Origin: Flavobacteriales bacterium
GTDB taxonomy: Bacteria; Bacteroidota; Bacteroidia; Flavobacteriales_F; PHOS-HE28
Direction of reading: 5' to 3'
Assembly: GCA_023957375.1 (NCBI GenBank)
Contig: JAMLHB010000001.1
Span: forward strand, 1,154,245-1,218,244
DNA: 64,000 bases
The notes under the pieces were generated by a model. That model searched no databases. It was not told the origin of the DNA and saw nothing but the letters and a program-made list of their open reading frames with translations. The position numbers and the translations under genes are program-made. Positions within the stretch are counted from its first letter, which is position 1; every line of letters begins with the position of its first letter. Below, in pieces: positions 9,663 to 62,574 of this stretch.

Positions 9663-9899
9663 ATGGGTAAAGGTGATAAGAAGACGAAGAAAGGTAAGCG
9701 CACCGCCGGTAGCACTGGTAAGGCCCGTCCTGCCAAGCGCACGGTAGCCACCGCTAAGAAGGCCGCCGCCAAGAAGGCCGCGCCGAAGAAGAAGGCCGCG
9801 CCGAAGAAGAAGGCCGCTGCCAAGAAGGCTGCGCCGAAGAAGAAGGCTGCTGCCAAGAAGGCTGCGCCGAAGAAGAAGGCCGCTGCCAAGAAGAAGTAA
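9663..9899 (+). CDS. histone H1-like lysine/alanine-rich DNA-binding protein
   Basis: 78-aa K/A/P-rich ORF with ~3.5 tandem copies of AAKKAAPKKKAAA (33-nt DNA repeat), followed by a strong terminator. Confidence 0.7.
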   Translation: MGKGDKKTKKGKRTAGSTGKARPAKRTVATAKKAAAKKAAPKKKAAPKKKAAAKKAAPKKKAAAKKAAPKKKAAAKKK

Positions 9900-13717: not shown

Positions 13718-14635
13718 ATGGCGCATCAAGCAAAGAAATCCAAGAGCAAAGCAGCAAAAACAGGCAAGGGTGTGGCCAAGGGCAAGCCGAAGACGGCCAA
13801 GGCGATGCCTGTGCGAAAGGCAATGGACAACAAAGGGGCAGCCAAGGCCCCCGCAAGCACCAAGAAGGCCCAACCGGCCACGCCCAAGAAGCGGGCCACC
13901 GGCACGGCCAAGAAGTCTCCGGCGAAGAAAGCTACCGCGAAAAAGACGTTGATCAAGAAAACAGCGGCCAAAAACAAGGTGGCGAAGAAGGTCCCCGCGA
14001 ACAAGGCCCCGTTCAAGAAAACTTCGCCCAAGAAGGTGGCTCTTGCCAAGGCACCAGTGGGCGGAAAGGCGGCAAAGAAGGTGGCGCCAACAAAGCCCCA
14101 AGTGAAGAAGGCACCGCTTAAGACACCGAACGCCACAAAAGCCCCGGTGCACAAACACCTGCAACGGCGATCTCCCGCCGGGAAGTCGGCCCATCAAGCG
14201 CCGGCCAAGGTGGTACCGGCACCGAAGCCCGCACCGCTTGCCCCGAAAGCCTTGAAGCAACGTTACCAGTTGGAGTTCTACCTCAATGCTTCACAGGCTT
14301 CCTTATATGAACTGATCAGCACTCCCAGCGGGTTCAGCGAGTGGTTCTGCGATGATGTGGACATGCACGAGAACAGGTACACCTTCAAATGGGGGGATGA
14401 GCAGGAACAGGCGGACTGCATCAGCCAGCGCTACGGGGAAAGCATCCGCTTCCGCTGGGTGGAAGACCTGGAGGAGGACCCCGCCGCCTATTTCGAGCTG
14501 CGGATACGGATCGACGGCATGACCAATGAAACCTGCCTAGTGGTGACCGACCATGCCTGGCCGCAGGACCTGATGGAGGAAAAAGCCCTTTGGGAAGCCC
14601 AGGTACAAACCCTGATCCGGGTGCTGGGCGCCTGA
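13718..14635 (+). CDS. fusion protein: N-terminal histone H1-like K/A/P-rich domain (~190 aa) plus C-terminal SRPBCC (AHSA1/START-like) domain
   Basis: The first ~190 aa are AKK/PKK low-complexity. The C-terminal 115 aa (YQLEFYLNASQASLYELISTPSGFSEWF…FRWVE…) resemble AHSA1/SRPBCC ligand-binding domains. Confidence 0.65.
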   Translation: MAHQAKKSKSKAAKTGKGVAKGKPKTAKAMPVRKAMDNKGAAKAPASTKKAQPATPKKRATGTAKKSPAKKATAKKTLIKKTAAKNKVAKKVPANKAPFKKTSPKKVALAKAPVGGKAAKKVAPTKPQVKKAPLKTPNATKAPVHKHLQRRSPAGKSAHQAPAKVVPAPKPAPLAPKALKQRYQLEFYLNASQASLYELISTPSGFSEWFCDDVDMHENRYTFKWGDEQEQADCISQRYGESIRFRWVEDLEEDPAAYFELRIRIDGMTNETCLVVTDHAWPQDLMEEKALWEAQVQTLIRVLGA

Positions 14636-27276: not shown

Positions 27277-28420
27277 CTACCCCCCGCTGAACTCCCCGGC
27301 CAGCATCTCCGCCTGCCGCAGCACCAGCTCCGTGGCCAGCTTCTGCATATCGGGAGGATAGCCGAAGTGCCGCAGTGTCCGCTTCACGATCACCTTCAGC
27401 TTCGCCTTCACGCTCTCCTTGATCGTCCAGTCGATACTGGCGTTCTGGCGCACGCGCTCGGTGAGGACCACGGCCAGTTCGCGGAGCTTCTCCTGTTGCA
27501 TCAGCTCCTTGGCGCTGTCATTGTTCGCCACGGCGGTGTAGAAGGCGTACTCGTATTCGCTGAGACCCATATCGGCGGCCTGCTTGTCGCCGGCGGTGAT
27601 CTCCTTGCTCACCTTGATCAGCTCCTCGATCACTTCGGCGGCGGTAAGGATCTTGTTGTGGTAGCGCTTGATGCTGTCCTCCAGCATGTCCATCAGTGAT
27701 CGGCTCTGCACAATGTTGGTGCGGGCGCGGGCCTTGATCTCGTCGTTCAGCAGCTTCTTTAGCACCTCGATGGCCACGTTCTTGTGCGCCATGCCTTTCA
27801 GCTCCAGAAGGAACTCATCGCTGAGCACGGAGATGTCCGGCTTCTTGATGCCTGCCGCGTCGTAGACGTCAATGACCTTCTCGCTCACGAGCGCTTGATC
27901 GATGACCTGCCGGATGGTGGTCTCCAATTCCTCATCGGTGCGACCGCTGCCGGTGCTGTCGAACTTCACGAGGCGGGCTTTCACGGCTTGGAAGAAGCCG
28001 ACCTCGTCCTTCACATCCATCGCCTGGTCGTGCGGGATGGCGATGGCGAAGGACTTGGACAGTGCAGTGACCTCGTTGATGTAACGGCGCTTGCCGTCCT
28101 CCAGACCCAGGATGTGCTCTTCGGCGCCGAGGATCATCGAGAGCTTCGTCGCCGTGTCCGCTCGGAAGTATTCCTCGTAGGGGAAGCCGCTGTACATGTT
28201 CGCCACCACCTCCAACTTCTCCAGCATCAGTGCCACGGCTTGTTCTTGCGCGATCGTTGGGTCGCCCTTACCGCCCGCATCGGAGTAGAACGAGAGCGCC
28301 TTCTTCAGGTCGGTTGCGATACCGAGGTAGTCCACCACCAGGCCGCCGGGCTTGTCCTGGAACACGCGGTTCACACGGGCGATGGCCTGCAGCAGGGCAG
28401 GGAAGAGCAGTGCGCCAAAG
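27277..28420 (-). pseudogene. truncated duplicate of the type I restriction enzyme R-subunit (hsdR) C-terminal ~380 codons
   Basis: The translation is collinear with the last 381 aa of the intact hsdR at 44212–47439. Nucleotide identity looks essentially complete over the 3'-terminal ~450 bp, then drops to roughly 85–90%. The N-terminus carries 37 unrelated residues (MKGICS…MKKLLPLAFGALLFPALLQ) before the join at AIARVNRVF. Confidence 0.85.
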
Positions 28421-28501
28421 GCGAGGGGTAAGAGCTTTTTCATGGGTTTGGGGTTTGTGTTGGTCATCGAGTTTGGTTTGGATGAAAAAATTGCGGTTTG
28501 C

Positions 28502-30157
28502 TCAATTCCTGGAGTAGAGCAGATACCCTTCATTCCGATGGACGAGGTGAGGGAACCAACGTCCGCGTTCGGGGTACTTCTCCGCCTCGCTTCGGCGAAT
28601 GAGCAAGTAGGTCACATCGTATGCTTGCAGCAGGCTGTCCATTTCAGGTGCAGGGGCCTCCAAGCCGGCGAACATTCCTGCTCTGGCCTGCTCGCGAGGC
28701 GCGGGGAGCACGTACGGATTCGCCATGGATGCGTTGGTGGCCACGGTCTTGCGGGCGGAGGCCATGAGGACCCGCATGGAGAGTTCGTCATCACAGAGCA
28801 CCACGGCTTCCCAAGGAAGTTGGTCCCGCATGAAATAGCACATGTCCGTTGCACCGGTGTCGGCCATTCGCAACAGGCACCGTTGCCGGGTGAGGACCAG
28901 GTCGGGCCGGTTGGCATAGGCAGGATATGCAAAGGCGGTTTGAACAAGGATCAGGGCCCCGAGGGTGAAGGTGGTCCTGGTCGTGGTCACTTGCGCATCT
29001 TCCGTGCGCTGTGGATACTGCCATGCACGCTTCACGGAAACCACCACGATATGAGCGAAGCCGATCGCCAATGCCGCCTTCAGGTAGAAGTAGAAGTGGA
29101 AGGTCGGTACCGCTGTGGGCAGCTTGATGCCATAATGCACGCCCAGTGTGACGGCCATGTACCCGAAAAAGCCGAAGAACAGGCACAGGAGGACCCATGA
29201 TCGCATCACCACCCGTGAAGCCTGCCCCTTGCCCCGGAACAGCCCCACCACCCCGATCACCGCTATCAGATTGAACAGTGAAGCGTTGTGGAAGAGGAAC
29301 AATTCCCAATTGCGCAGGGAAAGGGGCGTATAGGTATAGGCCGTCGGAATGCGGTTCACCTGGTCCAAACCATAGTGCCCGACCACATACCAGGTAAGCG
29401 GTAACGTGATGATGATGAACGCGGCAGCCGAAGCGAGCACGCATTTGATATGTGCACGGACCCCTGCACGATCCCCTGTGCGCCATGCCGTGACCATCGC
29501 GAAGATCAGGTGGAACGCCACCGTGCCCACCAAGATCATGGCAGGTGCGGCATGTGCGAGGAACAGGACACCCGCACCGGCGCCCATCCCCATCCATACC
29601 GGCCAGGCCGAGTAACGGAAGGAATGATGCAGCGCGATCACCAGAAGGTAGAACAAGCCCTGTGAGAACATCATCGGCAGGAGCCAGGGTGAGTAGGTGG
29701 CGATCGCCCAGCCCGGCTCCTGGCCAGGCAGCAGGAAGAGCAGCGCCCACAACGCCACGACGGCGACCAAGGGCTTGAACAACCGCCACACCATGAGAAA
29801 GAAGGCGATGGGGCCCAGCAGATTGAGGAAGGCCCCGGCCCGGGCCTGAAATACCTGAATGGAAACACCGGTGGCCTTCACGGCCAATGCCTCCATGGAG
29901 AATACGAGCGGAGTGAACCACATGACCTCATCGCGATACAAGGGATCCTCTCCGTAGTGTCCGTCCAGGATGCTCTGCGCGAACGAGGCGTCCCGGTCAA
30001 AGTCCACATAGGGTGGCCAGGTGAGGTCGCTGGTGGCCCGATGGCCGCCGGCGAACGCCAGGGCGATCAGGAATACGGCCAGAGCGGTGCAGATCAGGGA
30101 TCGCCGGTCCCGTCCGGAGTTCCTCGCTTGGGCCGGGTGAAGGTTGGACCGCTTCAT
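28502..30157 (-). CDS. polytopic membrane protein (GT-C/ArnT-like fold suspected)
   Basis: 551-aa ORF with more than 10 predicted TM helices and good coding bias. No catalytic motif confidently recognised. Confidence 0.5.
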   Translation of the reverse strand: MKRSNLHPAQARNSGRDRRSLICTALAVFLIALAFAGGHRATSDLTWPPYVDFDRDASFAQSILDGHYGEDPLYRDEVMWFTPLVFSMEALAVKATGVSIQVFQARAGAFLNLLGPIAFFLMVWRLFKPLVAVVALWALLFLLPGQEPGWAIATYSPWLLPMMFSQGLFYLLVIALHHSFRYSAWPVWMGMGAGAGVLFLAHAAPAMILVGTVAFHLIFAMVTAWRTGDRAGVRAHIKCVLASAAAFIIITLPLTWYVVGHYGLDQVNRIPTAYTYTPLSLRNWELFLFHNASLFNLIAVIGVVGLFRGKGQASRVVMRSWVLLCLFFGFFGYMAVTLGVHYGIKLPTAVPTFHFYFYLKAALAIGFAHIVVVSVKRAWQYPQRTEDAQVTTTRTTFTLGALILVQTAFAYPAYANRPDLVLTRQRCLLRMADTGATDMCYFMRDQLPWEAVVLCDDELSMRVLMASARKTVATNASMANPYVLPAPREQARAGMFAGLEAPAPEMDSLLQAYDVTYLLIRRSEAEKYPERGRWFPHLVHRNEGYLLYSRN

Positions 30158-40134: not shown

Positions 40135-40183
40135 GGGGTGAGCGATAACGCTCACTTCAACTTCTTCCCCCGCGATCATGAAC

Positions 40184-40385
40184 GCGCTCGGCTATTTGCC
40201 GAGCGCATGATCGCTTAGGGCCTCCGGCCTGTCCCATCCTCGCAATGCACGCGCTCGGCTATTTGCCGATCGCGTGATCGCTTAGGGCCTCCGGCCTGTC
40301 CCATCCTCTTCGGATATGCACATGAGCAAGGCGGGCCGGAGGCCCTAGCAGCCTACTCACTCGGCAAAATAGCCGAGCGAGTGTG
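40184..40385. repeat. cluster of hairpin-forming repeats (two direct ~60-bp copies plus one inverted partial copy)
   Basis: CGCGCTCGGCTATTTGCCGAGCGCATGATCGCTTAGGGCCTCCGGCCTGTCCCATCCTC occurs at ~40184 and ~40248. An inverted partial copy (GGCCGGAGGCCCTAG…CTCGGCAAAATAGCCGAGCG) lies at ~40335–40384. Confidence 0.6.
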
Positions 40386-40402: not shown

Positions 40403-43168
40403 TCAGTCGTCGAACCGCTTTCCCCGCAGGCGCAAGGAATTCGAGATCACGCTCACGCTACTGAAGCTCATGGCCGCAGCGGCGATGATGGGCGAGAGCA
40501 GCCAGCCGAACACCGGGTACAGCAGTCCGGCGGCGATGGGGATGCCCAAGGCGTTGTAGCCGAAGGCGAAGAAGAGGTTCTGCTTGATGTTGCGCATCAC
40601 GGCCTGCGAGAGGCGGCGTGCGCGCAGGATGCCGGTGAGGTCGCCCTTCACCAGGGTGATGCCCGCGCTTTCCATGGCCACATCGGTGCCGTGCCCCATG
40701 GCGATGCCCACGTCGGCGGCGGCCAGTGCGGGCGCATCGTTCACGCCGTCGCCGGCCATGGCCACGATGCGGCCTTCCTGCTGGAGACGTTGCACCACGG
40801 CGCTCTTCCGCTCGGGCAGCACGCCGGCCTCCACTTCCGTGATGCCGAGGCGCTTGGCAACTGCATCGGCGGTTCCCTGTGCATCGCCGGTCAGCATGAC
40901 GATGTGCAGCCCTTGCTTCCGCAGGCCGTCCAACGCTTTTGCGGTGGTGGGCTTGATCGCATCGGCGATGGCCAGCATGCCCGCGACCTTGTCATCGATG
41001 CCGACGAAGATCACCGTGGCGCCTTCACGCCTGCGGTCCGCCGCCAGTTTGGAATGCCGCTCCGTATCGATCGCATGCTCCTTCAGGAAATCCGCGCTGC
41101 CGAGGAGCACGCGCTTGCCTTCCACCGTGCCCATCACGCCTTTGCCTGTGGGCGAATCGAAATCTGTGACGGCCGGCACTTGTACCTCCTTCTCGCGCGC
41201 CACACTGACGATGGCCTTGGCATACGGATGCTCGGAAAGCCGCTCCACCGCTGCGGAGAAGCGCAATACTTCCTCTTCCGTAAACCCTTCTTCCGGAAAG
41301 ACATGCGTGAGGCTCGGCTTGCCTTCGGTGAGCGTGCCGGTCTTGTCCACCACCAGCGTATCCACCTTCTCCATGCGTTCCAGCGCTTCCGCATCGTGGA
41401 TCAGCACGCCCATGCCGGCGCCTTTCCCCACGCCCACCATGATGCTCATCGGCGTGGCCAGGCCCAATGCGCACGGGCATGCGATGATGAGCACGGACAC
41501 CGCGGCAACCAGCGCGTAAGTGAAGCGCGGCTCAGGTCCCACGAACATCCAGACGATGAAGATGAGCACGGCCACGCCGATCACGATCGGCACGAACCAG
41601 CCGGAAACCTTGTCGGCCATGCGCTGGATCGGTGCGCGGGAACGCTGGGCGGAGGCCACGAGATGCACGATGCGCGAGAGCACCGTATCGGCGCCCACTT
41701 TTCCCGCCTTCACCACCAAGGCGCCGGAGCTGTTCATGGTGCCACCGATCACGGCATCGCCCACGGTGCGGGTCACCGGCATGGATTCGCCGGTGATCAT
41801 GCTCTCGTCGATGGAGGAACGTCCTTCCAGCACTTCGCCGTCCACCGGCACTTTTTCCCCGGGCCGCACACGGAGACGATCGCCCACCGTGATGCTGTCC
41901 AGGGCCACTTCCTCGTCCGTGCCATCCGCATTGATGCGCATCGCGGTGGTGGGTGCCAGGTCCAGCAAGGCCTTGATGGCGCCGGACGTGCTTTCGCGTG
42001 CACGCAGCTCCAGCACTTGGCCCAGCAGCACCAGCACGGTGATCACGGCCGCGGCCTCGAAGTAGACGCCCACCACGCCCGGCGCGACATGGAATGCCTC
42101 CGGGAAGAGGCCCGGTGCGAACAGCGCGACCACGCTGTAGAGCCACGCTACGCCCACGCCCATGGCGATCAGCGTGAACATGTTGAGGTTGCGGTTGACC
42201 ACGGAAGCCCAACCGCGTTGCAGCAAGGGCCAACCCGCCCAGAGCACCACGGGCGTGGCCAGGATGAACTGGATCCACGCGGAGAGTTGCGGCGAAACGA
42301 TGTGATGCAACGCCGGGAAGATGTGCGATCCCATCTCCAGCACGAACACCGGGATGGAGAGCGCCACGCCGATCCAGAACCGACGCGTCATGTCGATCAG
42401 CTCCTCGTTGGGACCGGTGTCCGCGCTGTACACTTCCGGCTCCAGCGCCATGCCGCAGATGGGGCAGCTGCCCGGGCCCACCTGCCGGATCTCCGGATGC
42501 ATGGGGCAGGTGTAGATGGCCTCCTTGTTCACTGGCACTGCCGTGGCCGCATGCTGTTCAGGATGCAGGTAGCGCTCGGGATCGGCCTCGAATTTCGTTT
42601 TGCATCCGGCGGAACAGAAGTAATGGGAATGGCCGGCGTGTTCCGTGGAATACTTCGCCGTCTTCGGGTCCACGTCCATGCCGCAGACGAGGTCCTTCAC
42701 CTTGTTTCCTGTGGAAGAAGATGGTCCCGTGAGGTAGTGTTCCGGATCGGCCTCGAACTTCGTTTTGCAACCGGCGGAACAGAAGTAGTAGGTATGGCCC
42801 GCATGCGTAGTGGAATGCTTGGCGGTCTTCGGGTCCACGTCCATGCCGCAGACGGGGTCTCTCACCTTTTGCCCTGCGGAACCGGCGACTGGCAGGTACT
42901 GGGCGGGATCGACCTCGAACTTGGCCTTGCAACCCGCCGAACAGAAGTAATAGGTGTGCCCTGCGTGTTCGCTGGAATGCGTGGCGGTCTTCGGGTCCAC
43001 GTCCATGCCGCAGACCAAGTCCTTCACCTTGCCCTTGCCGATGGCGGGCATGGGGGGCAGCGCCGGTTCCATCCCTGTTCCGCAGCAACTGCCGCCGGAC
43101 TTCGCTTCGTGGGTGTGGCTTTCGCCGTGTTTCTTCTCCATGTCATCCTGGATCGCAGCACAAAGCAC
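40403..43168 (-). CDS. copA: copper-translocating P1B-type ATPase with three N-terminal YHS/TRASH modules and one HMBD
   Basis: Three [11 protein letters not shown]…HAGH(T/S)YYFCSAGCK modules plus YTCPMHPEI…CPICGM. Then CPC ([12 protein letters not shown]), [13 protein letters not shown], and the Cu-type TM motifs GYNALGIP and MSFSSVS. Confidence 0.9.
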
Positions 43169-43739: not shown

Positions 43740-44228
43740 CTACTTCCCGTATTTCTCTTTCAACTCGAGCTTCTTGATGCGCGAAGCGATCGCGCCTGGA
43801 TCGCGTCCGAAGATCACCGCGAGTTCCTTGTTCTTCTTGCCTTCGCAATACAGCTGCTCCAAGCGTGTATCATCCTCAGCCGTCCATCGCGCGTAGGCAT
43901 GCGGATGCTTCTCGCGGATCACTTCGACACTGTACGCCTTGTCGTCCCCCATGGTGAACGATTTCTTCTTGAACGCGTGCGCCATCAAGCGCCGTACAGC
44001 ATCCGCCATCGCCTCCAGCAGGTCCTCCGCGTGGTCCTTATCCACCATGATGTGGCTGTGCTCGAAGCGCTTGCCGGACTGCGTGCTCTCCGAAAGTTTC
44101 AAGTACGGCTCACCGCTCTTTGTTTCCTGCACATCCACGAAGTAGGTCTTGAGACCGGCGCGGAGGCGGGTGCTGTAGATCTCTTTGTCAGGCATCTTGT
44201 ACTGTATTGGTTCAATTCGCGAATTCAT
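43740..44228 (-). CDS. DUF3276 (PUR-alpha-like) family protein with extra C-terminal HTH-like region
   Basis: …KEIYSTRLRAGLKTYFVDVQETKSGEPYLKLSES… is the Bacteroidota-specific DUF3276 pattern. The C-terminal 50 aa (TAEDDTRLEQLY…IASRIKKLEL) resemble a sigma-region-4-like HTH. Overlaps the hsdR stop by 17 nt. Confidence 0.6.
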   Translation of the reverse strand: MNSRIEPIQYKMPDKEIYSTRLRAGLKTYFVDVQETKSGEPYLKLSESTQSGKRFEHSHIMVDKDHAEDLLEAMADAVRRLMAHAFKKKSFTMGDDKAYSVEVIREKHPHAYARWTAEDDTRLEQLYCEGKKNKELAVIFGRDPGAIASRIKKLELKEKYGK

Positions 44229-47200
44229 TCGCCAGCATCTCCGCCTGCCTTAACACCAGCTCCGTGGCCAGCTTCTGCATATCGGGAGGATAGCCGAAGT
44301 GCCGCAGTGTCCGCTTCACGATCACCTTCAGCTTCGCCTTCACGCTCTCCTTGATCGTCCAGTCGATACTGGCGTTCTGGCGCACGCGCTCGGTGAGGAC
44401 CACGGCCAGTTCGCGGAGCTTCTCCTGTTGCATCAGCTCCTTGGCGCTGTCATTGTTCGCCACGGCGGTGTAGAAGGCGTACTCGTATTCGCTGAGACCC
44501 ATATCGGCGGCCTGCTTGTCGCCGGCGGTGATCTCCTTGCTCACCTTGATCAGCTCCTCGATCACTTCGGCGGCGGTAAGGATCTTGTTGTGGTAGCGCT
44601 TGATGCTGTCCTCCAGCATGTCCATCAGTGATCGGCTCTGCACAATGTTGGTGCGGGCGCGGGCCTTGATCTCGTCGTTCAGCAACTTCTTGAGCACTTC
44701 AATGGCCACGTTCTTGTGCGCCATGCCCTTCAGCTCAAACAGGAATTCCTCGCTGAGCACGGAGATGTCCGGCTTCTTGATGCCCGCCGCATCGTACACG
44801 TCGATCACCTTGTCACTCACCAACGCCTGGTCGATCACCTGCCGGATGGTGGTCTCCAACTCCTCATCGGTACGACCGCCTCCGGTACCGTCGAACTTCA
44901 CGAGACGGGCCTTCACGGCTTGGAAGAAGCCGACCTCGTCCTTCACGTCCATCGCCTGGTCGTGCGGGATGGCGATGGCGAAGGCCTTGCTGAGCGCCGT
45001 GACCTCGTTTATGTACCGCCGCTTGCCGTCCTCCAGGCCGAGGATGTGTTCTTCAGCGGCAAGGATCAGCGACAACTTCTTCGCCGTATCCGCTTGGAAG
45101 TAGTCCTCGTAGGGGAAGCCGCTGTACAGGTTGGCGACCACTTCCAATTTCTCCAGCATCAGCGTAACAGCCTGCTCCTGTGCGATGGTGGGGTCACCCT
45201 TGCCACCGGCATCGGAATAGAAGCTGAGCGCCTTCTTCAGGTCGGCGGCGATGCCGAGGTAATCCACCACAAGGCCGCCGGGCTTGTCATGGAACACGCG
45301 GTTCACGCGGGCGATGGCCTGCATCAGGTTGTGCCCCTTCATCGGCTTGTCGATGTAGAGCGTATGCATACTGGGGGCATCGAAACCGGTGAGCCACATA
45401 TCGCGCACGATCACTAATTGCAGCGGATCGTTGGGGTCCTTCATGCGGTCGGCCAGGGCGCGGCGCTGCTCCTTGGTGCTGTGGTGCCGGGCCATGGCCG
45501 GGCCATCCGATGAAGCGGCCGTCATCACCACTTTGATCTTGCCCTTGCCCAGGTCGTCGTCGTGCCACTCCGGGCGCAGGGCCACGATCTCCCGGTACAG
45601 TTCCGCGGCGATCCTTCGGCTCATGGCCACGATCATGCCCTTGCCCTCAAAGACCTCCTGCCGCTGCTCGAAGTGCGCCACGATGTCGCGCGCCACGTTC
45701 TTGATCCGGTTCTCGCTGCCGATCAGCGCCTCCAATTGGGTCCACTTGGCCTTGGCCTTCTGTGTGTCGGTGAGTTCCTCCTTGCCCAACTCATCGTCCA
45801 GGTCTTTGATCAGCTGCTTGCCTTCCTCGCTCAGGTTCACCTTGGCCAAGCGGCTCTCGTAGTAGATGCGCACGGTGGCGCCGTCCTCCACGGCCTGCGC
45901 GATGTCGTACACATCCACGTAGTTCCCGAAGACCGCAGGGGTGTTCACATCGGTGCTCTCGATGGGCGTGCCGGTGAAACCCAGGTAGGTGGCCTTGGGC
46001 AGCGCATCGCGCAGGTACTTGGCGAAGCCGTAGACGATCTTGCTGCCGACCACTTCGCCCGCTTCGTCCTTCACATCCACGTTGCGGGCCTTGAAACCGT
46101 ATTGTGTGCGGTGCGCTTCGTCGGCGATCACCACGATGTTCTCGCGGGCGCTCAACTGATCATACACGTTTCCCTCCTCGGGCTGGAACTTCTGGATGGT
46201 CGTGAACACCACGCCGCCGCTGGCCACCTTCAGCAACTCCTTCAGGTGGTCGCGGCTTTCGGCCTGCACGGGTTCCTGCCGCAGCAGTTGCACGCTTGCC
46301 GCGAAGGTGTCGAAGAGCTGGTCGTCCAGGTCGTTGCGGTCGGTGATCACAACGATGGTCGGATTGTTCAGCGCCAGCACGATCTTGCCGGTGTAGAACA
46401 CCATGCTCAGGCTTTTGCCGCTGCCTTGGGTGTGCCATACCACACCGCCTTTGCGGTCACCGGTGGGTTGCTGGTTTACACCGGGTAGGCCATAGCTCTC
46501 CGGTGATTCCGCCACCATCGACACATCGCCCGTGGTGCTCGTTGACGGAGCCTTGTAGCCTGCCGCCCTGAGCGTGCTCGCCACCGCCCGGTTCACCGCG
46601 TAGTACTGGTGGTACGCGGCGATCTTCTTTACCGTGGTGATGGTGTTGATGCCCGTCTTCGGGTCTTCCTTCTTGCTGCGCTCGAACACGATGAAGTGGC
46701 GCACCAGATCGAGCAGCGTCTCCTTGTTGAGCATGCCCACGATCAGCGTTTCCAACTGACCGATCAACGGCGAGGCTTCCACCTTGCCATCGCTGGTCTT
46801 CCAGCTCATGTACCGGCTATAACCGCTGCTCACCGTGCCGGCCTTGGCCTCCAGGCCGTCGCTGATCACCGTCACACAGTTGTAGGTGAACAGGCCGGGG
46901 ATGGTCTCCTTGTAGGTCTCCACCTGCTTGTAGGCGCTGCGGATGCTCGCCTTCTCATCGGCGGCGTTCTTCAGCTCCATCAGCACCAGCGGCAGGCCGT
47001 TCACGAACAGCAGTACATCCGGCCGCTTGTTCTTGCCGTTCTCCACCACGGTGTATTGGTTCACCACTAATAAGTCGTTGTTGGCGGGGTCGGTGAAATC
47101 CACCAGCCACACCAGGTCGCCGCGGGTGTTGCCGTCCTGCTGGTAGTCCACCTTCACGCCTTCGGTGAGCATGCGGTGGAAGACCTCGTTGTTCACCAGC

Positions 47201-47439
47201 AGCTCCGGGCTGGCGATGCGCGCCACCTGCTTCACCGCCTCCTCCTGTGCCGCTGCCGGTATGCGCGGGTTGATGCGCCGCACGGCCGCGCGCAGGCGCT
47301 CCATCAGCAGCACCGGCTCGTGGCTGGCACGCTCGGGCTGCTCGCCGTCGTGCGCGATGCAGGGCCCGTACTGGTAGGCGTAGCCCAGCTCGCGCAAGCG
47401 CCCAATGGCGAACTGTTCGATCTGGTCTTCGGTCATCAC
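44212..47439 (-). CDS. hsdR: type I restriction enzyme R subunit (HsdR)
   Basis: 1075 aa with an N-terminal nuclease/res domain, a DEAD-like helicase (…VITDRNDLDDQ…, …VVIADEAHRTQYG…) and a C-terminal HsdR_C region. GTG/ATG start 1 nt after the upstream ORF's stop. Confidence 0.9.
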   Translation of the reverse strand: MMTEDQIEQFAIGRLRELGYAYQYGPCIAHDGEQPERASHEPVLLMERLRAAVRRINPRIPAAAQEEAVKQVARIASPELLVNNEVFHRMLTEGVKVDYQQDGNTRGDLVWLVDFTDPANNDLLVVNQYTVVENGKNKRPDVLLFVNGLPLVLMELKNAADEKASIRSAYKQVETYKETIPGLFTYNCVTVISDGLEAKAGTVSSGYSRYMSWKTSDGKVEASPLIGQLETLIVGMLNKETLLDLVRHFIVFERSKKEDPKTGINTITTVKKIAAYHQYYAVNRAVASTLRAAGYKAPSTSTTGDVSMVAESPESYGLPGVNQQPTGDRKGGVVWHTQGSGKSLSMVFYTGKIVLALNNPTIVVITDRNDLDDQLFDTFAASVQLLRQEPVQAESRDHLKELLKVASGGVVFTTIQKFQPEEGNVYDQLSARENIVVIADEAHRTQYGFKARNVDVKDEAGEVVGSKIVYGFAKYLRDALPKATYLGFTGTPIESTDVNTPAVFGNYVDVYDIAQAVEDGATVRIYYESRLAKVNLSEEGKQLIKDLDDELGKEELTDTQKAKAKWTQLEALIGSENRIKNVARDIVAHFEQRQEVFEGKGMIVAMSRRIAAELYREIVALRPEWHDDDLGKGKIKVVMTAASSDGPAMARHHSTKEQRRALADRMKDPNDPLQLVIVRDMWLTGFDAPSMHTLYIDKPMKGHNLMQAIARVNRVFHDKPGGLVVDYLGIAADLKKALSFYSDAGGKGDPTIAQEQAVTLMLEKLEVVANLYSGFPYEDYFQADTAKKLSLILAAEEHILGLEDGKRRYINEVTALSKAFAIAIPHDQAMDVKDEVGFFQAVKARLVKFDGTGGGRTDEELETTIRQVIDQALVSDKVIDVYDAAGIKKPDISVLSEEFLFELKGMAHKNVAIEVLKKLLNDEIKARARTNIVQSRSLMDMLEDSIKRYHNKILTAAEVIEELIKVSKEITAGDKQAADMGLSEYEYAFYTAVANNDSAKELMQQEKLRELAVVLTERVRQNASIDWTIKESVKAKLKVIVKRTLRHFGYPPDMQKLATELVLRQAEMLANEFAN

Positions 47440-54707: not shown

Positions 54708-55215
54708 GGCGGTCGATCAATTCATCCAGCAATTTCCGGGCATGGGGCACGAACGAAAGGGCAACCTGGTAGGTCTCCCCGGCCTTGTCCGTGTCGTAGT
54801 TGTGGCTGGTGAGGTTGCGTGCCCGCTGGAAGGTGAACCAACCTTCGGGGTCATCGATCAAGCCCCTGCGGGCCGCTTCCCTGAACAATTCCCTTCTGCC
54901 CAACAGGTCCGCATCCCCGGCTTCCATCAATACTAACTGGCGGCGCATCATCTTCCAGTACAGCTCATAAGTGTACTCAAACCGCTGGATGCATCCATCA
55001 CGCTCCAAGTCGTTCGCCGGCACTGTTGGCGAACGCCTCTTCCAAGCGCAAAAACCGCATTCAACAAACTGGACAGGTCCAAGCGTTCCGGATCCATGGT
55101 TGCTAAGATAAATGCCTGCACCTACTTCGCTGTGCCAAGGCTCCTTATGCAGCGCCTTGTCAATCCAGCCCCAGGTCCATCTGCTTGCCCGGCTTATAAC
55201 CGATGATCGGATCAT
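54700..55215 (-). CDS. nucleotidyltransferase substrate-binding protein, HI0074/HEPN-like family
   Basis: …IQRFEYTYELYWKMMRRQL…RELFREAARRGLIDDPEGWFTFQRARNLTSHNYD… Start uncertain: the annotated N-terminal ~40 aa look non-homologous, so the true start may be internal or non-ATG. Confidence 0.55.
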   Translation of the reverse strand: MIRSSVISRASRWTWGWIDKALHKEPWHSEVGAGIYLSNHGSGTLGPVQFVECGFCAWKRRSPTVPANDLERDGCIQRFEYTYELYWKMMRRQLVLMEAGDADLLGRRELFREAARRGLIDDPEGWFTFQRARNLTSHNYDTDKAGETYQVALSFVPHARKLLDELIDRHA

Positions 55216-57919
55216 CCGGCGAGCGGTCCTCCTTGCCCACCTTTTCCACCTTGTGGTTCTTCCGGAATTCTTCCATGGGCGATCGCTCCAGGCCTTCCGA
55301 TTCCGGCGGGGGCAGATGGCCGATCTCCTCCTTGGTGATCAGCATGTGTTGCTGTTCCTCCAGTTCGGGCGTCATCACGGTGAACACGTCGCCGTTCAGT
55401 TTCAGGTCCTTCACCTTGTAGGGTGTCAGGCGGTTACCCAGGGCCTTCACCCCTTTCACGGCAATGAACTCCGAGAGCGCGATGTCCTCGTCGGGCCGGT
55501 CGTTGGTGCGCTTGTCGAAGGCGATGTGCAGGCCGGTTTCCGGCACAAGGGAGTGCAGCACCAGCTTGCTTTCCGGGTGGTCGGTGATGAAGAGCACGGG
55601 GTCGCGTGCGGCCTCGGGCAGGAAACGCTTCACGTTGTACTGCTGCTTCTCCCCTTCCCAGTACACGGCGGTGATGGGCATTTCCGGGTCCCACTTCACG
55701 ATGGTGAGGGCCTCGTCGGGGAAGTGTGTGCCCAGCGCGAAGGGGAACAGTTGATAGTGGCCGGTGGAGAGGATGCCGAGGATCTTGTCCTCCCCGCTGA
55801 AGCGGCCCAAGTAGCGGCCGTGCCCGGCCTCGTTGAGGCGGCGCACAGTGTCATCGAACCATACGGGGATGGCGCCGAGCGTGCTGCCGCCGCGTTCCTT
55901 CTGCACCACCTTGTGTACAATATGGCGCGTGAGCAAGTTGCCCTTGCTGCCACGGCCTTTCACGGCTAGTGCTCCGAAGTCCACGTCGAACTGCGTTTTG
56001 CGCAGGTTGGGGCGCGGGCGCAGGTTGATGCGCACCACTTCCGAGGCGCCGTCCGGGTTGGCGGTGAAGTAGAGCACCTTGCTGCCTTTGCTACCGTTAG
56101 TGAGGTCGTACTCCTTGTCGCGCGTGATGCCGGTGACGGCAAAGCGCTTCATGTAGCTCGGCCCCTGCGATCCGTCCTGGTAGATCAGGTGGTAAATGGT
56201 GCGCTCATCCCCCTTCTTCCACACGGCCGCATGCAGCACGCCCTTGCCCACGAATTTCTTATCCGCCACCTTGGTCACCAGCATGGTGCCGTCGGCGCGG
56301 AACACGATGATGTCGTCGATCTCCGAGCATTCGTCCACCTGCTCGAAGCTGCGCAGGCTCCAGCCGATGAAGCCTTCCCCGCGATCGAGGTAGAGCTTCT
56401 TGTTGGCCACGGCCACTGCGGTGGCCACGATGGTGTCGAAGGCGCGCAGTTCGGTCTTGCGTTCGCGGCCAGCGCCATACTTGCGCTTGAGTTCCTTGAA
56501 GTAGTCGATGGCGTAGTCCACCAGTGCATTGAGCTTGGCTTGCACGTCGCCCAGTTGCTCCTCCAAGCCCTTGATGTGTTCATCGGCCTTGAAGCTGTCG
56601 AACTTGCTGATGCGCTTGATGCGGATCTCCGTCAATCGCACGATGTCCTCTTCGGTCACCGCACGGCGCAGCTCTTTCACGTAGGGCTTCAAGCCCTTGT
56701 CGATGAAGCTGATCACCTGTTCCCAGGTCTCGGCCTCCTCGATCTTGCGGTACACTTTCTTCTCGATGAAGATGCGCTCCAGCGAGGCGAAGTGCCATTG
56801 CTCCTGCAACTCGCGCTCCTTGATCTGCAACTCCAGCTCCAGCAGGCGCAGCGTGTTTTCGGTGCTGGCCTTCAGCAGTTCGCCCACGCCCACGAAGCGT
56901 GGCTTGTCGTTCTCGATCACCACGGCGTTGGGCGCGATGCTCAGCTCGCAGTCGGTGAAGGCGAAGAGCGCGTCGATGGTGTTGTCCGGCGATACGCCGG
57001 GTGCGAGGTGGATCTGGATCTCGGCGTTGGCGGCCGTGTTGTCCTCAATGTGGCGCACCTTGATCTTGCCCTTGTCGTTGGCCTTGATGATGCTCTCGAT
57101 GAGGCTGGCGGTGGTGGTGCCGAAGGGGATCTCGGTGATCACCAGCGTCTTGTTGTCCTCCTTGCGGATGCGCGCGCGGCAGCGGATGCGCCCGCCGCGC
57201 CGGCCTTCGTCGTAGTTGTCGGCATCGGCCAGGCCGGCCGTTGGGAAATCGGGCAGCAGCTTGGGGTTCTTGCCCTTCAGCACGGCGATGCTGGCGTCGA
57301 TCAGCTCATTGAAGTTGTGCGGCAGCACCTTGCAGCTGAGGCCCACGGCGATGCCCTCACCGCCTTGCGCCAACAGCAGCGGGAATTTCACCGGCAGGAA
57401 GACCGGCTCCTTGTTGCGGCCGTCGTAGCTGCTTTGCCATTCGGTGGTCTTCGGGTTGAAGACGACATCGTTGGCGAACTTGCTCAGGCGTGCCTCGATG
57501 TAGCGCGGGGCGGCGGCGCTGTCACCGGTGAGGGTGTTGCCCCAGTTGCCCTGCATGTCGATCAGCAGGTCCTTCTGGCCGAGTTGCACCAGCGCGTCGC
57601 CGATGCTGGCGTCGCCATGCGGGTGGTACTGCATGGTGTGGCCGATGATGTTGGCCACCTTGTTGTAGCGCCCGTCGTCCAGCACCTTCATGCTGTGCAG
57701 GATGCGGCGCTGCACGGGCTTCAGGCCATCGTACAAAGCGGGCACGGCGCGCTCCAGGATCACATAGCTCGCGTAATCCAAAAACCATTCGCGGTACATG
57801 CCGCTCACGCTGAAGGTGCCCGCCTGGCCGGTGCCAGGAACGCCTTCGGGGGATGCGGCGCCAGTGCAGCCCGTCTCTTCAACGTCGTCGTTCAATTGCT
57901 CTTCGGGTTCGTCGCTCAT
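55160..57919 (-). CDS. parC: DNA topoisomerase IV subunit A (ParC; GyrA-paralogue)
   Basis: …LDYASYVILERAVPALYDGLKPVQRRILH…HPHGD… active-site region and a C-terminal beta-pinwheel. 919 aa. Confidence 0.8.
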   Translation of the reverse strand: MSDEPEEQLNDDVEETGCTGAASPEGVPGTGQAGTFSVSGMYREWFLDYASYVILERAVPALYDGLKPVQRRILHSMKVLDDGRYNKVANIIGHTMQYHPHGDASIGDALVQLGQKDLLIDMQGNWGNTLTGDSAAAPRYIEARLSKFANDVVFNPKTTEWQSSYDGRNKEPVFLPVKFPLLLAQGGEGIAVGLSCKVLPHNFNELIDASIAVLKGKNPKLLPDFPTAGLADADNYDEGRRGGRIRCRARIRKEDNKTLVITEIPFGTTTASLIESIIKANDKGKIKVRHIEDNTAANAEIQIHLAPGVSPDNTIDALFAFTDCELSIAPNAVVIENDKPRFVGVGELLKASTENTLRLLELELQIKERELQEQWHFASLERIFIEKKVYRKIEEAETWEQVISFIDKGLKPYVKELRRAVTEEDIVRLTEIRIKRISKFDSFKADEHIKGLEEQLGDVQAKLNALVDYAIDYFKELKRKYGAGRERKTELRAFDTIVATAVAVANKKLYLDRGEGFIGWSLRSFEQVDECSEIDDIIVFRADGTMLVTKVADKKFVGKGVLHAAVWKKGDERTIYHLIYQDGSQGPSYMKRFAVTGITRDKEYDLTNGSKGSKVLYFTANPDGASEVVRINLRPRPNLRKTQFDVDFGALAVKGRGSKGNLLTRHIVHKVVQKERGGSTLGAIPVWFDDTVRRLNEAGHGRYLGRFSGEDKILGILSTGHYQLFPFALGTHFPDEALTIVKWDPEMPITAVYWEGEKQQYNVKRFLPEAARDPVLFITDHPESKLVLHSLVPETGLHIAFDKRTNDRPDEDIALSEFIAVKGVKALGNRLTPYKVKDLKLNGDVFTVMTPELEEQQHMLITKEEIGHLPPPESEGLERSPMEEFRKNHKVEKVGKEDRSPDDPIIGYKPGKQMDLGLD

Positions 57920-59412: not shown

Positions 59413-60150
59413 TCATCGGGTCATATTCCATGTAAGCCCGCCTTGCCACGTGCCGCCGTTTGGCCCCGGCATCCAACTCAGGCCATCGAAGCGCAGTTTC
59501 TCCTTGTCGATGAACTCCGGCTTGGCCCGCTGGCCGGAGCGCCAGTACAGGTAGGCGGTAGTGCCCGCAAAGAGCGCCGTAACGCCCGCCGAAACCGCAA
59601 ACTTGTTCCGTGCCTTCCGGAAGGCCTCCTTGTCCGCTGGCATGGTCTGCTCCTTCAGCACCGTGATTGCGTGGGGTGAAGGTGCAACATCGTACGCGGC
59701 GCGGTCGTCGTCCAGCACGTCGTGTGCCTTCTTCATGTTGGCAAACTGGAAACCCGTGTACACCAAGGCGCCGACGGTGAGGATTGCTGGCAACGTGCGC
59801 ATCAGGCGCATTTGCTTCTGGTAGGCATCCAGGTCGCGCTGGTACACCAAGTACTCCGTGGAGAACGGCAAGCGTAAAGTGAAGGTGGAGGCCCGGTTTC
59901 CAATGATGGTGAGCGTGGTGTCCACCACCTTGCGTTGCGGCGCCCAAAAGCTGAAGCGGTGCGGGCCTTCCAGCAGTTCCACCTCGTTTTTCTGCAAGGT
60001 GAACCGGTGGTCTAAGCGATACATGTAACCGGGCGGGTCGATCTGTAGCCGCAGCTTGCCGGAGGTTTGGGCATAAAGCGCGGAGGCGGGAACCAAGGCC
60101 GCCAAGGCCAACGTCTGAAGGGTGATGCGCAAGTTCATCAAGGAATCCAA
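59413..60150 (-). CDS. hypothetical secreted protein
   Basis: Signal peptide (LRITLQTLALAALVPASALYAQ), then an ORF with a predicted TM segment mid-protein. No family recognised. Confidence 0.45.
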   Translation of the reverse strand: MDSLMNLRITLQTLALAALVPASALYAQTSGKLRLQIDPPGYMYRLDHRFTLQKNEVELLEGPHRFSFWAPQRKVVDTTLTIIGNRASTFTLRLPFSTEYLVYQRDLDAYQKQMRLMRTLPAILTVGALVYTGFQFANMKKAHDVLDDDRAAYDVAPSPHAITVLKEQTMPADKEAFRKARNKFAVSAGVTALFAGTTAYLYWRSGQRAKPEFIDKEKLRFDGLSWMPGPNGGTWQGGLTWNMTR

Positions 60151-60176
60151 AGGTAGGGTCCCAACTTCGCCCTACG

Positions 60177-60620
60177 TCAAGGTCCGCTCCGCGAGACCTT
60201 GATGGAGCCAATACAATTCCCTCAGAGTTCCCTCAAGGTCTCCCGAAGGGAACCTTGCAGGAGAAGCACCTGGCATCAAGGTCCGCTCCGCGAGACCTTG
60301 ATGGGACCAATACAATTCCCTCAGAGTTCCCTCAAGGTCTCCCGAAGGGAACCTTGCAGGAGCAACATCCCTACGTCAAGGTCCGCTCCGCGAGGCTTTG
60401 ATGGAGCCAATACAATTCCCTCAGAGTTCCCTCAAGGTCCTCCCGAAGGGGACCTTGCAGGAGCAACATTCCTACGTCAAGGTCCGCTCCGCGAGACCTT
60501 GATGGGACCAATACAATTCCCTCAGAGTTCCCTCAAGGTCTCCCGAAGGGAACCTTGCAGGAGAAGCACCTGGCATCAAGGTCCGCTCCGCGAGACCTTG
60601 ATGGCACCAATCTCCCACCA
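60177..60620. repeat. intergenic tandem repeat, ~100-bp unit x ~4.4 copies
   Basis: Unit TCAAGGTCCGCTCCGCGAGACCTTGATGG(AG/GA)CCAATACAATTCCCTCAGAGTTCCCTCAAGGTCTCCCGAAGGGAACCTTGCAGGAG plus a 12–13-nt segment (AAGCACCTGGCA or CAACAT(C/T)CCTACG). Each unit has two internal hairpins. ORF 60199–60633 is an artefact of it. Confidence 0.85.
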
Positions 60621-60651
60621 CCTGATCATCTGATCCTCCAATTGTCCGACC

Positions 60652-62574
60652 CTACTCCTCCACTTCGTTCATCTCCAGTTTCTCCGCGATGGAGCGCACT
60701 GCGGCCGTCCTCGCCTCCTCGGCACTTTCCTCGGCAATGTCCTTCTCCACTTTCAGGTTGCCGATGATGAATTCCTGCCGCTGCGGGGTGTTCTTGCCCA
60801 TATAGAAGCCGAGCAGGTCGTTCACCTTGGCGTCCTTGGTGATCATCACCGGCTCTAAGCGGATGTCCGGGCCGATGAAGTGCTTGAACTCGTCGGGGCT
60901 GATCTCGCCCAAGCCCTTGAACCGCGTGATCTCCGCGCTCTTGCCCAGCTTGGCGATGGCGCGCTGCCGCTCCTCGTCGCTGTAGCAGTAGATGGTCTCC
61001 TTTTTGTTGCGCACGCGGAATAACGGCGTTTGCAGGATGTAGAGGTGGTCGTTCTTCACCAGGTCCGGGAAGAACTGCAGGAAGAAGGTCATCAACAGCA
61101 GGCGGATGTGCATGCCGTCCACGTCGGCATCGGTGGCGATGACGATCTTGTTGTAGCGCAGTCCGTCCATGCCGTCCTCGATGTCCAGCGCGGCCTGGAT
61201 CAGGTTGAACTCCTCGTTCTCGTACACGATCTTCTTGGTGAGGCCGAAGCTGTTGAGCGGCTTTCCCTTCAGGCTGAACACGGCCTGTGTTTCCACGTCG
61301 CGGCTTTTGGTGATGCTGCCGCTGGCGCTGTCGCCCTCGGTGATGAAGAGGGTGCTTTCCTCACGCCGGTCCTCCTTCTTGGAGGCATCGCTGAGGTGGA
61401 TGCGGCAATCGCGGAGTTTCTTGTTGTGCAGGCTGGATTTCTTGGCGCGCTCGCGGGCCAGCTTGCGGATGCCGCTGAGCTCCTTGCGTTCGCGCTCATT
61501 CTGCAAAATGCGCGCTTGCAGCACCTCCGCCACCGCCGGGTTCTTGTGGAGGAAGTTGTCCAGCTCGCGCCCGAGGAAGTCGCCCACGAAGCTGCGCATG
61601 CTTTGCCCGCCGGGCTCCACCTCCAGGCTGCCCAGCTTGGTCTTGGTCTGGCTCTCGAACACGGGCTCCACCACCTTCACGCTCACGGCCGCTACGATGC
61701 CCGTGCGGCAATCACCGGCCTCCCAGTCCTTCTTGAAGAATTCCTTGATGGTCTTGGCCACGGCTTCGCGGAAGGCGCCTTGGTGCGTGCCGCCCTGTGT
61801 GGTGTGCTGGCCGTTCACGAAGCTGTAGTATTCCTCGCCGTAGTGGTTGGCATGGGTGATGGCCACTTCGATGTCGTCGCCGATCAGGCGGATGATGGGG
61901 TACAGCGGCTCGCCGTCCATCTTGGTCTCCAGCAGGTCCAGCAGGCCGTTCTTGCTCTGGAAACGGCGCCCGTTGTACACGATGGTGAGGCCGGTGTTCA
62001 GGTAGCAGTAGTTCCACAGCAGGCGTTCGATGTGCTGCTCGCGGAACTGGTATTGCTTGAACATCTGGTCGTCCGGCTCGAAGACCACGCGAGTGCCGTT
62101 GGCTTCTTCGCTCTTCACCAGTTTTTCATCCTTGCGCAGCACTCCGCGGTCGAACTCGGCGCGCTTCATCTGCCCGTCGCGGTAGCTCTCGATCTTGAAC
62201 CAGGTGCTCAGGGCGTTCACCGCCTTGGTGCCCACGCCGTTGAGACCCACGCTTTTCTTGAAGGCCTTGCTGTCGTACTTGGCGCCGGTGTTGATCTTGC
62301 TCACCACGTCGATCACCTTGCCCAAGGGCACGCCGCGCCCGTAGTCGCGCACTTCCACGCGCGGCCCTTCGATGGTGACCTCCACCTTTTTTCCGTGGCC
62401 CATCACGAATTCATCGATGCAGTTGTCCAGCACTTCCTTCAGCAGGATGTAAATGCCGTCGTCGTAGCTGCTGCCGTCGCCCAGCTTGCCGATGTACATG
62501 CCCGGCCGCAGCCGGATGTGTTCCTTCCAGTCCAGCGACCGGATAGTGTCTTCGCCGTAGTTCGTCTCGCTCAT
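60652..62574 (-). CDS. parE: DNA topoisomerase IV subunit B (ParE; GyrB-paralogue)
   Basis: GHKL ATPase N-terminus (…[11 protein letters not shown]…GRGVP…), TOPRIM (…EGDSASGS…), and …IATDADVDG…. The length (640 aa) fits ParE rather than GyrB. Confidence 0.85.

Follow-up and report, generated by a model that had tools for sequence, protein, structure and literature searches.

In E. coli operons, REPs (repetitive extragenic palindromes) stabilise the upstream mRNA, and the BIME-2 arrays of this bacterium bind DNA gyrase. BIME-2 arrays are built from imperfect palindromes of ~35–40 nt (the Y and Z2 REPs), which alternate strictly, are joined by two kinds of linker and are repeated in tandem. They lie between co-directional operon genes, and their copy number differs between lineages. 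The same traits were found in an array of an uncultured Flavobacteriales bacterium, at positions 60170–60611 of the window (the whole 64-kb stretch of DNA analysed here). The likeness is one of architecture: the array has no sequence similarity to BIME-2 and no conserved GTAG foot, its linkers are longer (100-nt doublet), and its host is a member of the Flavobacteriales, not an enterobacterium.

BIMEs and REPINs are defined by an architecture of inverted REP doublets repeated in tandem (PMC6006769). In the REPIN and RAYT system of the Pseudomonas fluorescens type (Bertels and Rainey 2011, PMC3116915), the inverted doublet folds as one long hairpin, the RAYT gene is flanked by its cognate REPs, and singleton REPs resemble doublet remnants. 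We recognized counterparts of all three, the flanked RAYT genes being in related contigs and the singleton REP at the locus L026. Unlike in that system, the doublets of the array are amplified in tandem and not dispersed singly, and the RAYT appears to fall into another group, of Bacteroidota type. For the TnpA-REP enzymes, a mechanism has been described in which the folded single strand is recognised, cut and rejoined (Ton-Hoang 2012; Messing 2012; summarised in PMC6006769).

TnpA-REP subclass 2.6 (Bertels group 5) occurs mostly in Bacteroidetes. Its proteins have about 179 aa and the motifs NH[LIV]H and YIH[QN]NP, and flanking its genes there are "atypical secondary structures", which recur in the genome and have no conserved GT[AG]G (Quentin et al. 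2018, PMC6006769). Tandem arrays like the one in the window are not described there. The CGTC-tagged REPs (Di Nocera et al. 2013, PMC3733652), a class also reported in Bacteroidetes, have a CGTC/CCTC end by an AA...TT stem of ~9–10 bp with a short loop, and are mostly inverted dimers, as are the REPs of the array. The array differs from this class, to which it is likened by description, in its tail (GAT/GCA, not CCA), its bulged stem and its loops of 3–4 nt, and clusters, rare in the CGTC class, are usual here. In the literature searched we found no paper linking REPINs or RAYTs with Flavobacteria past incidental mentions.

Our best explanation, held with high confidence, is that the array is a REP/BIME-type cluster of a RAYT-associated family, with the mobility and site history proposed below. 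It has a period of 99–101 nt and 4.4 units, amounting to nine REPs. Tandem Repeats Finder placed it at 60177–60611 (period 99, 4.4 copies, 90% matches, score 705), bearing out the ~100-bp tandem repeat of 4.4 copies reported in an earlier note on this DNA, and found a second, overlapping period of 201 nt. Hairpin 1 (TCAAGGTCCGCTCCGCGAGACCTTGA) was present at all five unit starts given in that note, i.e., at 60177, 60276, 60376 (two mismatches), 60477 and 60576, where shuffled sequences lead one to expect 0 copies. Hairpin 2 was found exactly at 60234, 60333 and 60534, and as a variant at 60433 (0 to 0.08 expected in shuffles). Neither hairpin had a copy elsewhere in the 64-kb window. The ORFs agreed with the noted position between the 3′ end of parE and the start of a secreted-protein gene, and both genes are on the minus strand, which the note had missed. 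Its dismissal of CRISPR also stands, with units of 99–101 nt and a variable segment of only 12–13 nt in two types, compared with CRISPR repeats of about 24–48 nt and unique spacers of like length. The same applies to its view of the array as non-coding. A 144-aa plus-strand ORF exists (60199–60633), but the successive unit lengths (99, 100, 101 and 99 nt) shift the frame and there is no protein repeat.

The tails of 12–13 nt, described earlier as alternating between successive units, do not do so. They run A, B, B, A, unit 1 being preceded by a B-like sequence, and the part of the units that alternates is instead a GAG/GGA variant following hairpin 1. Units 1 and 4 are 98% identical, compared with 87–93% for the other unit pairs, and 60171–60311 matches 60471–60611 over 141 nt at 98%. 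This similarity points to a recent duplication of a ~300-nt block within the array. The features of the array and its borders, with the covariance-model scores explained below, are as follows.

60652–62574, minus strand: parE, topoisomerase IV subunit B, the upstream neighbour (ORF; homologue names; Pfam HATPase_c, DNA_gyraseB and Toprim in homologues)
60612–60651, minus strand: non-repeat leader from the parE stop to the first REP; GATCAGATGAT is common to the one-REP locus L026 (partial sharing)
60170–60611, no strand assigned: whole REP cluster, BIME/REPIN-type (Tandem Repeats Finder, repeat search and covariance-model matches)
60569–60608, minus strand: REP 9 (hairpin 1, partial unit 5), 47.4 bits; in the direction of transcription, the first REP past the parE stop
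60526–60565, plus strand: REP 8 (hairpin 2, unit 4), 54.3 bits
60470–60509, minus strand: REP 7 (hairpin 1, unit 4), 53.1 bits
60425–60465, plus strand: REP 6 (hairpin 2, unit 3), 48.3 bits
60369–60408, minus strand: REP 5 (hairpin 1, unit 3), decayed, 39 bits
60325–60364, plus strand: REP 4 (hairpin 2, unit 2), 55.3 bits
60269–60308, minus strand: REP 3 (hairpin 1, unit 2), 52.2 bits
60226–60265, plus strand: REP 2 (hairpin 2, unit 1), 54.3 bits on the plus vs. 14.4 on the minus strand
60170–60209, minus strand: REP 1 (hairpin 1, unit 1), 51.8 bits on the minus vs. 16.9 on the plus strand; the "forward" REP orientation is minus
60139–60169, minus strand: non-repeat junction from the last REP to the downstream ATG, kept in L024
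59413–60138, minus strand: 241-aa gene, the downstream neighbour, with a signal-peptide-like N-terminus; 100% identical to MCO5274280.1 (Flavobacteriales MAG)

The two stem-loops per unit seen in the earlier note are both present, but they are not two structures. Both are the same element, read in opposite directions: an imperfect palindrome of ~40 nt whose 10-bp stem has one bulge. Hairpin 1 is the reverse complement of hairpin 2 (81% complementary over 31 nt in the repeat search). Read on the minus strand, hairpin 1 (CCATCAAGGTCTCGCGGAGCGGACCTTGACG) aligns with plus-strand hairpin 2 (CCCTCAAGGTCTCCCGAAGGGAACCTTGCAG), and in the family consensus the 5′ arm of both hairpins carries the identical bulged T. 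When compared in inverted orientation, the two share seven of ten inner-stem and loop positions, against three of ten in direct comparison.

A covariance model built from 22 family members was run unfiltered on the window and recognized exactly nine REPs, in the strict order − + − + − + − + −. Each REP scored 39–55 bits in one orientation and 14–19 bits in the other, a difference of about 20 to 40 bits. Outside the array, the best match of the model in the 64-kb window reached 14 bits (E ~0.07), and the array is its single cluster there. Across the 22 members, 96.8% of the stem cells were paired, and both-side changes were found at three stem pairs (15 cells). In a control, with the structure slid by one to three columns, pairing was 23–46%. 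The second, divergent REP of locus L019 (stem CTCAGCGATC) was misaligned by one column in MAFFT and was excluded from the pair counts.

The single hairpins folded with −15 to −21 kcal/mol, except for REP 5. This REP has two transitions in one arm; the plus strand can still pair there through G-T wobbles (fold energy −16.4 kcal/mol), whereas the minus strand has mismatches (−3.8 kcal/mol). In REP 6, 1 nt is inserted and an A-to-G change matches it, so that the stem is kept (−19.5/−20.7 kcal/mol). On the sense strand, a whole unit folded into one long hairpin of −52 kcal/mol, the two REPs pairing with each other. The array region folded far better than its shuffles, with z of −6.5 for the minus and −7.8 for the plus strand. 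The foot tetranucleotide was GTAG after three of the five minus-forward REPs, and GCAG in the copies from sludge contigs (L013–L017). Judged by these feet, the GT[AG]G guide is not conserved. The array is thereby set apart from the canonical REP classes of enterobacteria and pseudomonads, though not from REPs as a kind, since subclass 2.6 is reported to lack the guide too (PMC6006769). The short (20–40 nt) palindrome, the inverted doublet and the extragenic position that mark REPs are all found in the array.

The family was also found at other loci. An exact scan for the 24 nt of hairpin 1, in one genome per species, retrieved a single contig, L001, from a Flavobacteriales MAG. It carries 41-nt tandem arrays at both contig ends, with all REPs in one orientation. 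Because its closely related hairpin combines the loop of hairpin 1 with the flanks of hairpin 2, L001 ties the two hairpins together independently. By a degenerate scan of metagenome contigs we obtained four array contigs (L014–L017), of which three belong to a single activated-sludge assembly. The four have a nearly identical hairpin pair with other linkers, and their units repeat every 84, 90, about 97 and about 128 nt. In addition, a small cluster of four REPs was present on a fifth contig, L013. Altogether the family was present at six or more unrelated metagenome loci, and its other members were positioned beside tsf or sucC, or between other genes. The contigs L001, L014–L017 and L024/25 end inside arrays; most array contigs do so, in keeping with a dispersed repeat on which assemblies break. 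In the ~10 kb around parE in relatives, the REP model detected no REP cluster; with a single cluster in 64 kb of the window, the family may have few copies in this genome. Two metagenome/viral matches, L012 and L018, did not fit the REP model and were discarded as chance hits.

The downstream 241-aa gene has an alternative start at 60150, giving 245 aa, and a Pfam search with its protein returned no family. Next come a 141-aa gene, other small ORFs and then parC (55160–57919). The order in relatives is parE, a 243–245-aa gene, a 141-aa gene and parC, and their parE stop overlaps the next start or is 2–3 nt apart from it. From this gene layout we take parE-X-Y-parC of the relatives to be a tight operon. 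In the window, 513 nt lie between parE and the downstream gene, measured from the ATG at 60138. The array separates two genes that overlap or abut in the relatives' operon. The junction between array and ATG holds TACCTTTG (60155–60148), which fits TAnnTTTG, the −7 promoter consensus of Bacteroidetes, and whose end is 9 nt ahead of the ATG. On the minus strand TAnnTTTG has only three matches in 64 kb, and the junction copy is kept in L024. By its fit to the consensus, TACCTTTG is a possible independent promoter of the downstream gene. In the array itself (60170–60611), a terminator scan of both strands gave no terminator-like site, and a scan for promoters of the sigma-70 type gave none.

The site downstream of parE had different occupants in different lineages. 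In L002, with a parE 98.9% identical (nt), we found an unrelated element of ~120 nt made of CACGGAT motifs, and in L003 (parE 88% identical, nt) this element in duplicate, with 0 REPs in both. L004–L011 (ParE 93–94% identical in aa, parE about 90% in nt) had no spacer and 0 REPs. In L026–L031 (parE 93.7%, nt) there was one REP, with 44 nt that are 95% identical to part of the window unit, and then the CACGGAT element, which is absent from the window. The contig of L024/25 (88% over 1.3 kb) starts inside a REP, followed by the window's junction sequence, and thus has at least one REP. A REP is present at the junction of parE and the downstream gene in several lineages. The copy number at the site, for which the earlier note had proposed a comparison of relatives, varies from 0 in most relatives through 1 and at least 1 to the 9 of the window. 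Judging by these sequences, the site is a hot spot with a lineage-dependent number of REPs. Since the REP count at the orthologous site differs between lineages, we read the array as a mobile element that can expand and was inserted into a once tight operon, and not as a conserved RNA specific to this locus. Between the window and L002, the gene adjoining the array has an identity of only 77%, whereas its flanks reach 94–99%, suggesting that the allele of this gene was replaced together with the array.

The alternative that survives best is nevertheless a function selected at this locus, and we consider it unlikely. The array would then be a cis-regulatory element or structured RNA, in the 3′UTR of parE or the 5′UTR of the downstream gene, kept, for instance, for differential mRNA stability, for attenuation or as a supercoiling-responsive gyrase/topoisomerase IV site, and not for mobility. 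Such a role would suit the common strand of the two neighbours, their operon in relatives, the folding of the array beyond that of its shuffles and the REP at the parE site in at least three lineages, and the gyrase binding and mRNA stabilisation by E. coli REPs are precedents for it. However, the site is empty in L004–L011 and, despite a parE identity of 98.9%, taken by an unrelated element in L002. Unrelated loci and the surroundings of transposase genes carry these hairpins as well, linkers and copy number vary freely, and REP 5 is decayed on the sense strand, the one that would be transcribed. A check against Rfam, named in the earlier note, likewise yielded no family. With Rfam 15, the array had no match at the gathering score, and a permissive search gave chance-level matches only (E ≥ 0.12).

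The same observations decide between the possibilities that the earlier note had listed. A locus-specific structured RNA is not supported, in view of the hairpins at unrelated loci and beside RAYT genes, of their lack in the relative with 98.9% parE identity and of the Rfam result. A phase-variable promoter spacer was rejected on the anatomy of the array, the dispersed hairpins and their place beside RAYT genes, and a dedicated protein-binding array finds no support in view of this dispersal and of the site without REPs in a relative. The REP/BIME-like array, listed with them, gained support from the alternating REPs, the dispersal and the link to RAYT. A dispersed REP family without positional conservation, which the note had set against its own locus-specific view, is in kind what we found, with members at other loci and a variable site.

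By analogy with the gyrase-binding BIME-2 of E. coli, the host might also have co-opted the array for control of the topoisomerase IV operon, as a binding/cleavage site of a type II topoisomerase or as a supercoiling-sensitive hairpin barrier. We rate this as slightly less likely again than a function selected at the locus. If it were true, DNA topology would govern the balance between parE on the one hand and the downstream genes and parC on the other.

The enzyme expected for a REP family was recognized on contig L016, where an ORF lies between two REP arrays and has REPs on both sides. It matched Pfam Y1_Tnp (PF01797) with 25.1 bits (cut-off 23). Its best NCBIfam match was the REP-associated tyrosine transposase (E 1.4e-15, profile positions 7–146 of 146), with a score of 57.5 bits, below the curated cut-off of 80. 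Several homologues are named "REP element-mobilizing transposase RayT" by JGI. Two residues were invariant among 13 homologues, namely the first histidine of the HUH motif (MPNH) and the Y-I-H-x-N-P tyrosine; the I was nearly invariant, and the second HUH histidine was kept in at least 90%. In a search of solved structures, the RAYT gave marginal IS200-type matches only (E about 0.5). By motifs, size and phylum, the partner RAYT resembles subclass 2.6 (PMC6006769). It comes from the same phylum and has the NH[LIV]H and YIHxNP motifs, and its gene is flanked by structures without a conserved GT[AG]G that recur elsewhere. It is 186–190 aa long, compared with about 179 aa, and the motifs YIH[QN]NP and WQ of the subclass read here YIH[RAHLF]NP and W-R (or F).

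Two further contigs encoded RAYT homologues next to REPs. In L019 the homologue (66% identity) has arrays of about 64–71 nt on both sides, and of its REP pair one is unchanged, while the other has a different stem yet is palindromic. In L023 the homologue (58% identity) is flanked by REPs in which AAGG/CCTT is replaced by AGGG/CCCT, a compensatory change. Co-variation of REP and enzyme is the signature of a REPtron (PMC6006769), and REPtrons were seen in L016, L019 and L023, contigs other than the window's. A tblastn search with the RAYT over the 64-kb window found none. A protein identical to the L016 RAYT (100%) was P0121 (MCO5273357.1), and the protein matching the 241-aa neighbour of the array was P0198 (MCO5274280.1, locus tag M9900_05105). 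Both are listed with a longest contig of 1,936,661 nt, in a Flavobacteriales MAG, their accession numbers being 923 apart, so that the window's own chromosome appears to encode an L016-type RAYT, about 920 genes away. By analogy with described REPtrons, the REP family is probably the cognate non-autonomous partner of this RAYT, an HUH/Y1 tyrosine transposase, by which it would be mobilised.

It is very unlikely that the RAYT genes are near the family by coincidence, the array being a hairpin satellite or MITE that owes its spread to another transposase or to recombination only. For the CGTC-tagged REPs, also those of a flavobacterium, no dedicated transposase was found (Di Nocera et al. 2013, PMC3733652). 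The window REPs are much like this class, starting with CGTC or CCTC and then an AA...TT stem, and have no conserved GTAG guide. The window family, in contrast, flanks RAYT genes: three RAYT homologues (100%, 66% and 58%) each have REPs on both sides, and the REP stems differ between the RAYT loci, with a compensatory difference at the 58% locus L023, as in the REPtron signature (PMC6006769). The window REPs could be of the CGTC type, with a dedicated RAYT that was absent from the 2013 survey. Least likely of all is an assembly artefact, with the array or its copy number mis-expanded or mis-collapsed in the MAG: the relatives' short-read contigs that break inside arrays (L001, L014–L017, L024/25) show how hard these are to assemble, but the units differ by specific substitutions and indels (87–98% identity) and both junctions are unique sequence, one of them common to L024.

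For a REP/BIME-type cluster we propose the following mechanism. By analogy with TnpA-REP of E. coli, the RAYT would bind the folded single-stranded REP hairpin, cut and rejoin it, and in this way seed REPs in intergenic DNA. In the window lineage, the doublet would have been amplified in tandem by block duplication, via unequal recombination or slippage, and the 98% identity of units 1 and 4 may be taken as showing this block amplification in part. The sense (minus) transcript would form either nine hairpins, which are stable, or four long ones of the REPIN type. Because the REP hairpins have no U-tail, they are not expected to be intrinsic terminators. The hairpins would shield the parE mRNA from 3′ exonucleases, do away with the translational coupling found in relatives and let fewer transcripts read through into the downstream gene, which may instead use the TAnnTTTG box in the junction.

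The array is no new kind of system but an element of the ordinary bacterial "junk" sort. It is a tidy example in a little-studied phylum, in which RAYT-flanking structures have so far been called only "atypical", and it documents a well-defined REP/RAYT pair for an uncultured, GC-rich Flavobacteriales lineage. Short-read assemblies break at members of this family, which matters for binning such genomes from activated sludge, and the covariance model is usable for a census of the family. For the biology of the host lineage, the array is an example of such elements invading, and expanding within, an essential-gene operon (parE...parC).

The 241-aa exported-protein gene (59413-60138, minus strand) is the neighbour of the REP array, downstream of parE in the sense of transcription. 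Between the window and L002, the corresponding locus of a relative, the DNA identity of this gene was only 77%, compared with 98.9% for parE and 94% for the downstream region, a difference which suggests that the allele was replaced or that the gene evolves fast. The Pfam search recognized no family in the encoded protein. In front of the gene there was a promoter-like box:

60148-60155, minus strand: TACCTTTG, match to the Bacteroidetes -7 promoter consensus TAnnTTTG

The box ends 9 nt before the ATG, is one of only three matches to the consensus on the minus strand of the 64 kb, and is conserved in L024, a locus that starts inside a REP and continues into the junction sequence of the window. 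Judged by its sequence, TACCTTTG is a candidate promoter, which may free the 241-aa gene from parE read-through.

A REP related to the family in the window formed tandem arrays at both ends of L001, a 2.7 kb Flavobacteriales MAG contig:

L001, 1-347: related REP, 41-nt period, 8.5 copies
L001, 2636-2749: related REP, 41-nt period, 2.8 copies

The REPs in these arrays had one orientation throughout. Head-to-tail REP arrays have been described as rare (PMC3733652).

Other repeats in the window are listed here, with the ATPase gene that holds one of them:

9738-9896: AAGAAGGCCGC(C/T)GCC-type repeats, 15-18 nt each
27299-27598 and 44231-44530: 300-nt direct repeat, 99% identity, copies 16.9 kb apart
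40178-40308: 67-nt tandem duplication, 95% identity
40403-43168, minus strand: 921-aa P-type ATPase
42567-43043: 165-nt repeat, 2.9 copies at 79%, coding

The AAGAAGGCCGC(C/T)GCC-type repeats, with a weaker copy at 13985, are likely to code for a low-complexity stretch of protein rich in lysine and alanine. Each copy of the 300-nt repeat forms the 3' end of a gene: at 44231-44530 the gene has 1075 aa (44212-47439, minus strand) and resembles the R subunit of a type I restriction enzyme, and at 27299-27598 it is a truncated duplicate of 418 aa (27277-28533, minus strand). The DNA between the two copies, including a heavy-metal P-type ATPase gene, may be an inserted island. The 165-nt repeat encodes three repeated metal-binding modules at the N-terminus of the 921-aa ATPase. 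Just beyond the low-coordinate end of this ORF (40403), which is the 3' end of the gene, lies the 67-nt duplication, carrying the hairpin GCGCTCGGC-TATTT-GCCGAGCGC in each copy and unrelated to the REP family of the array at 60170-60611.

In relatives, a second small element, unrelated to the REP, occupied the same parE-downstream site:

L002, 5700-5830: CACGGAT element
L003, 5924-6230: CACGGAT element, duplicated
L026, 2555-2640 and about 2960-2990: CACGGAT element

Its building blocks are the inverted motifs CACGGAT(G/A)AACACGGAT ... CATTCATCCGTGTGGATCCG. A search for the element in the window gave no match. The parE-downstream site has the appearance of a hot spot at which more than one family of repeats inserts.
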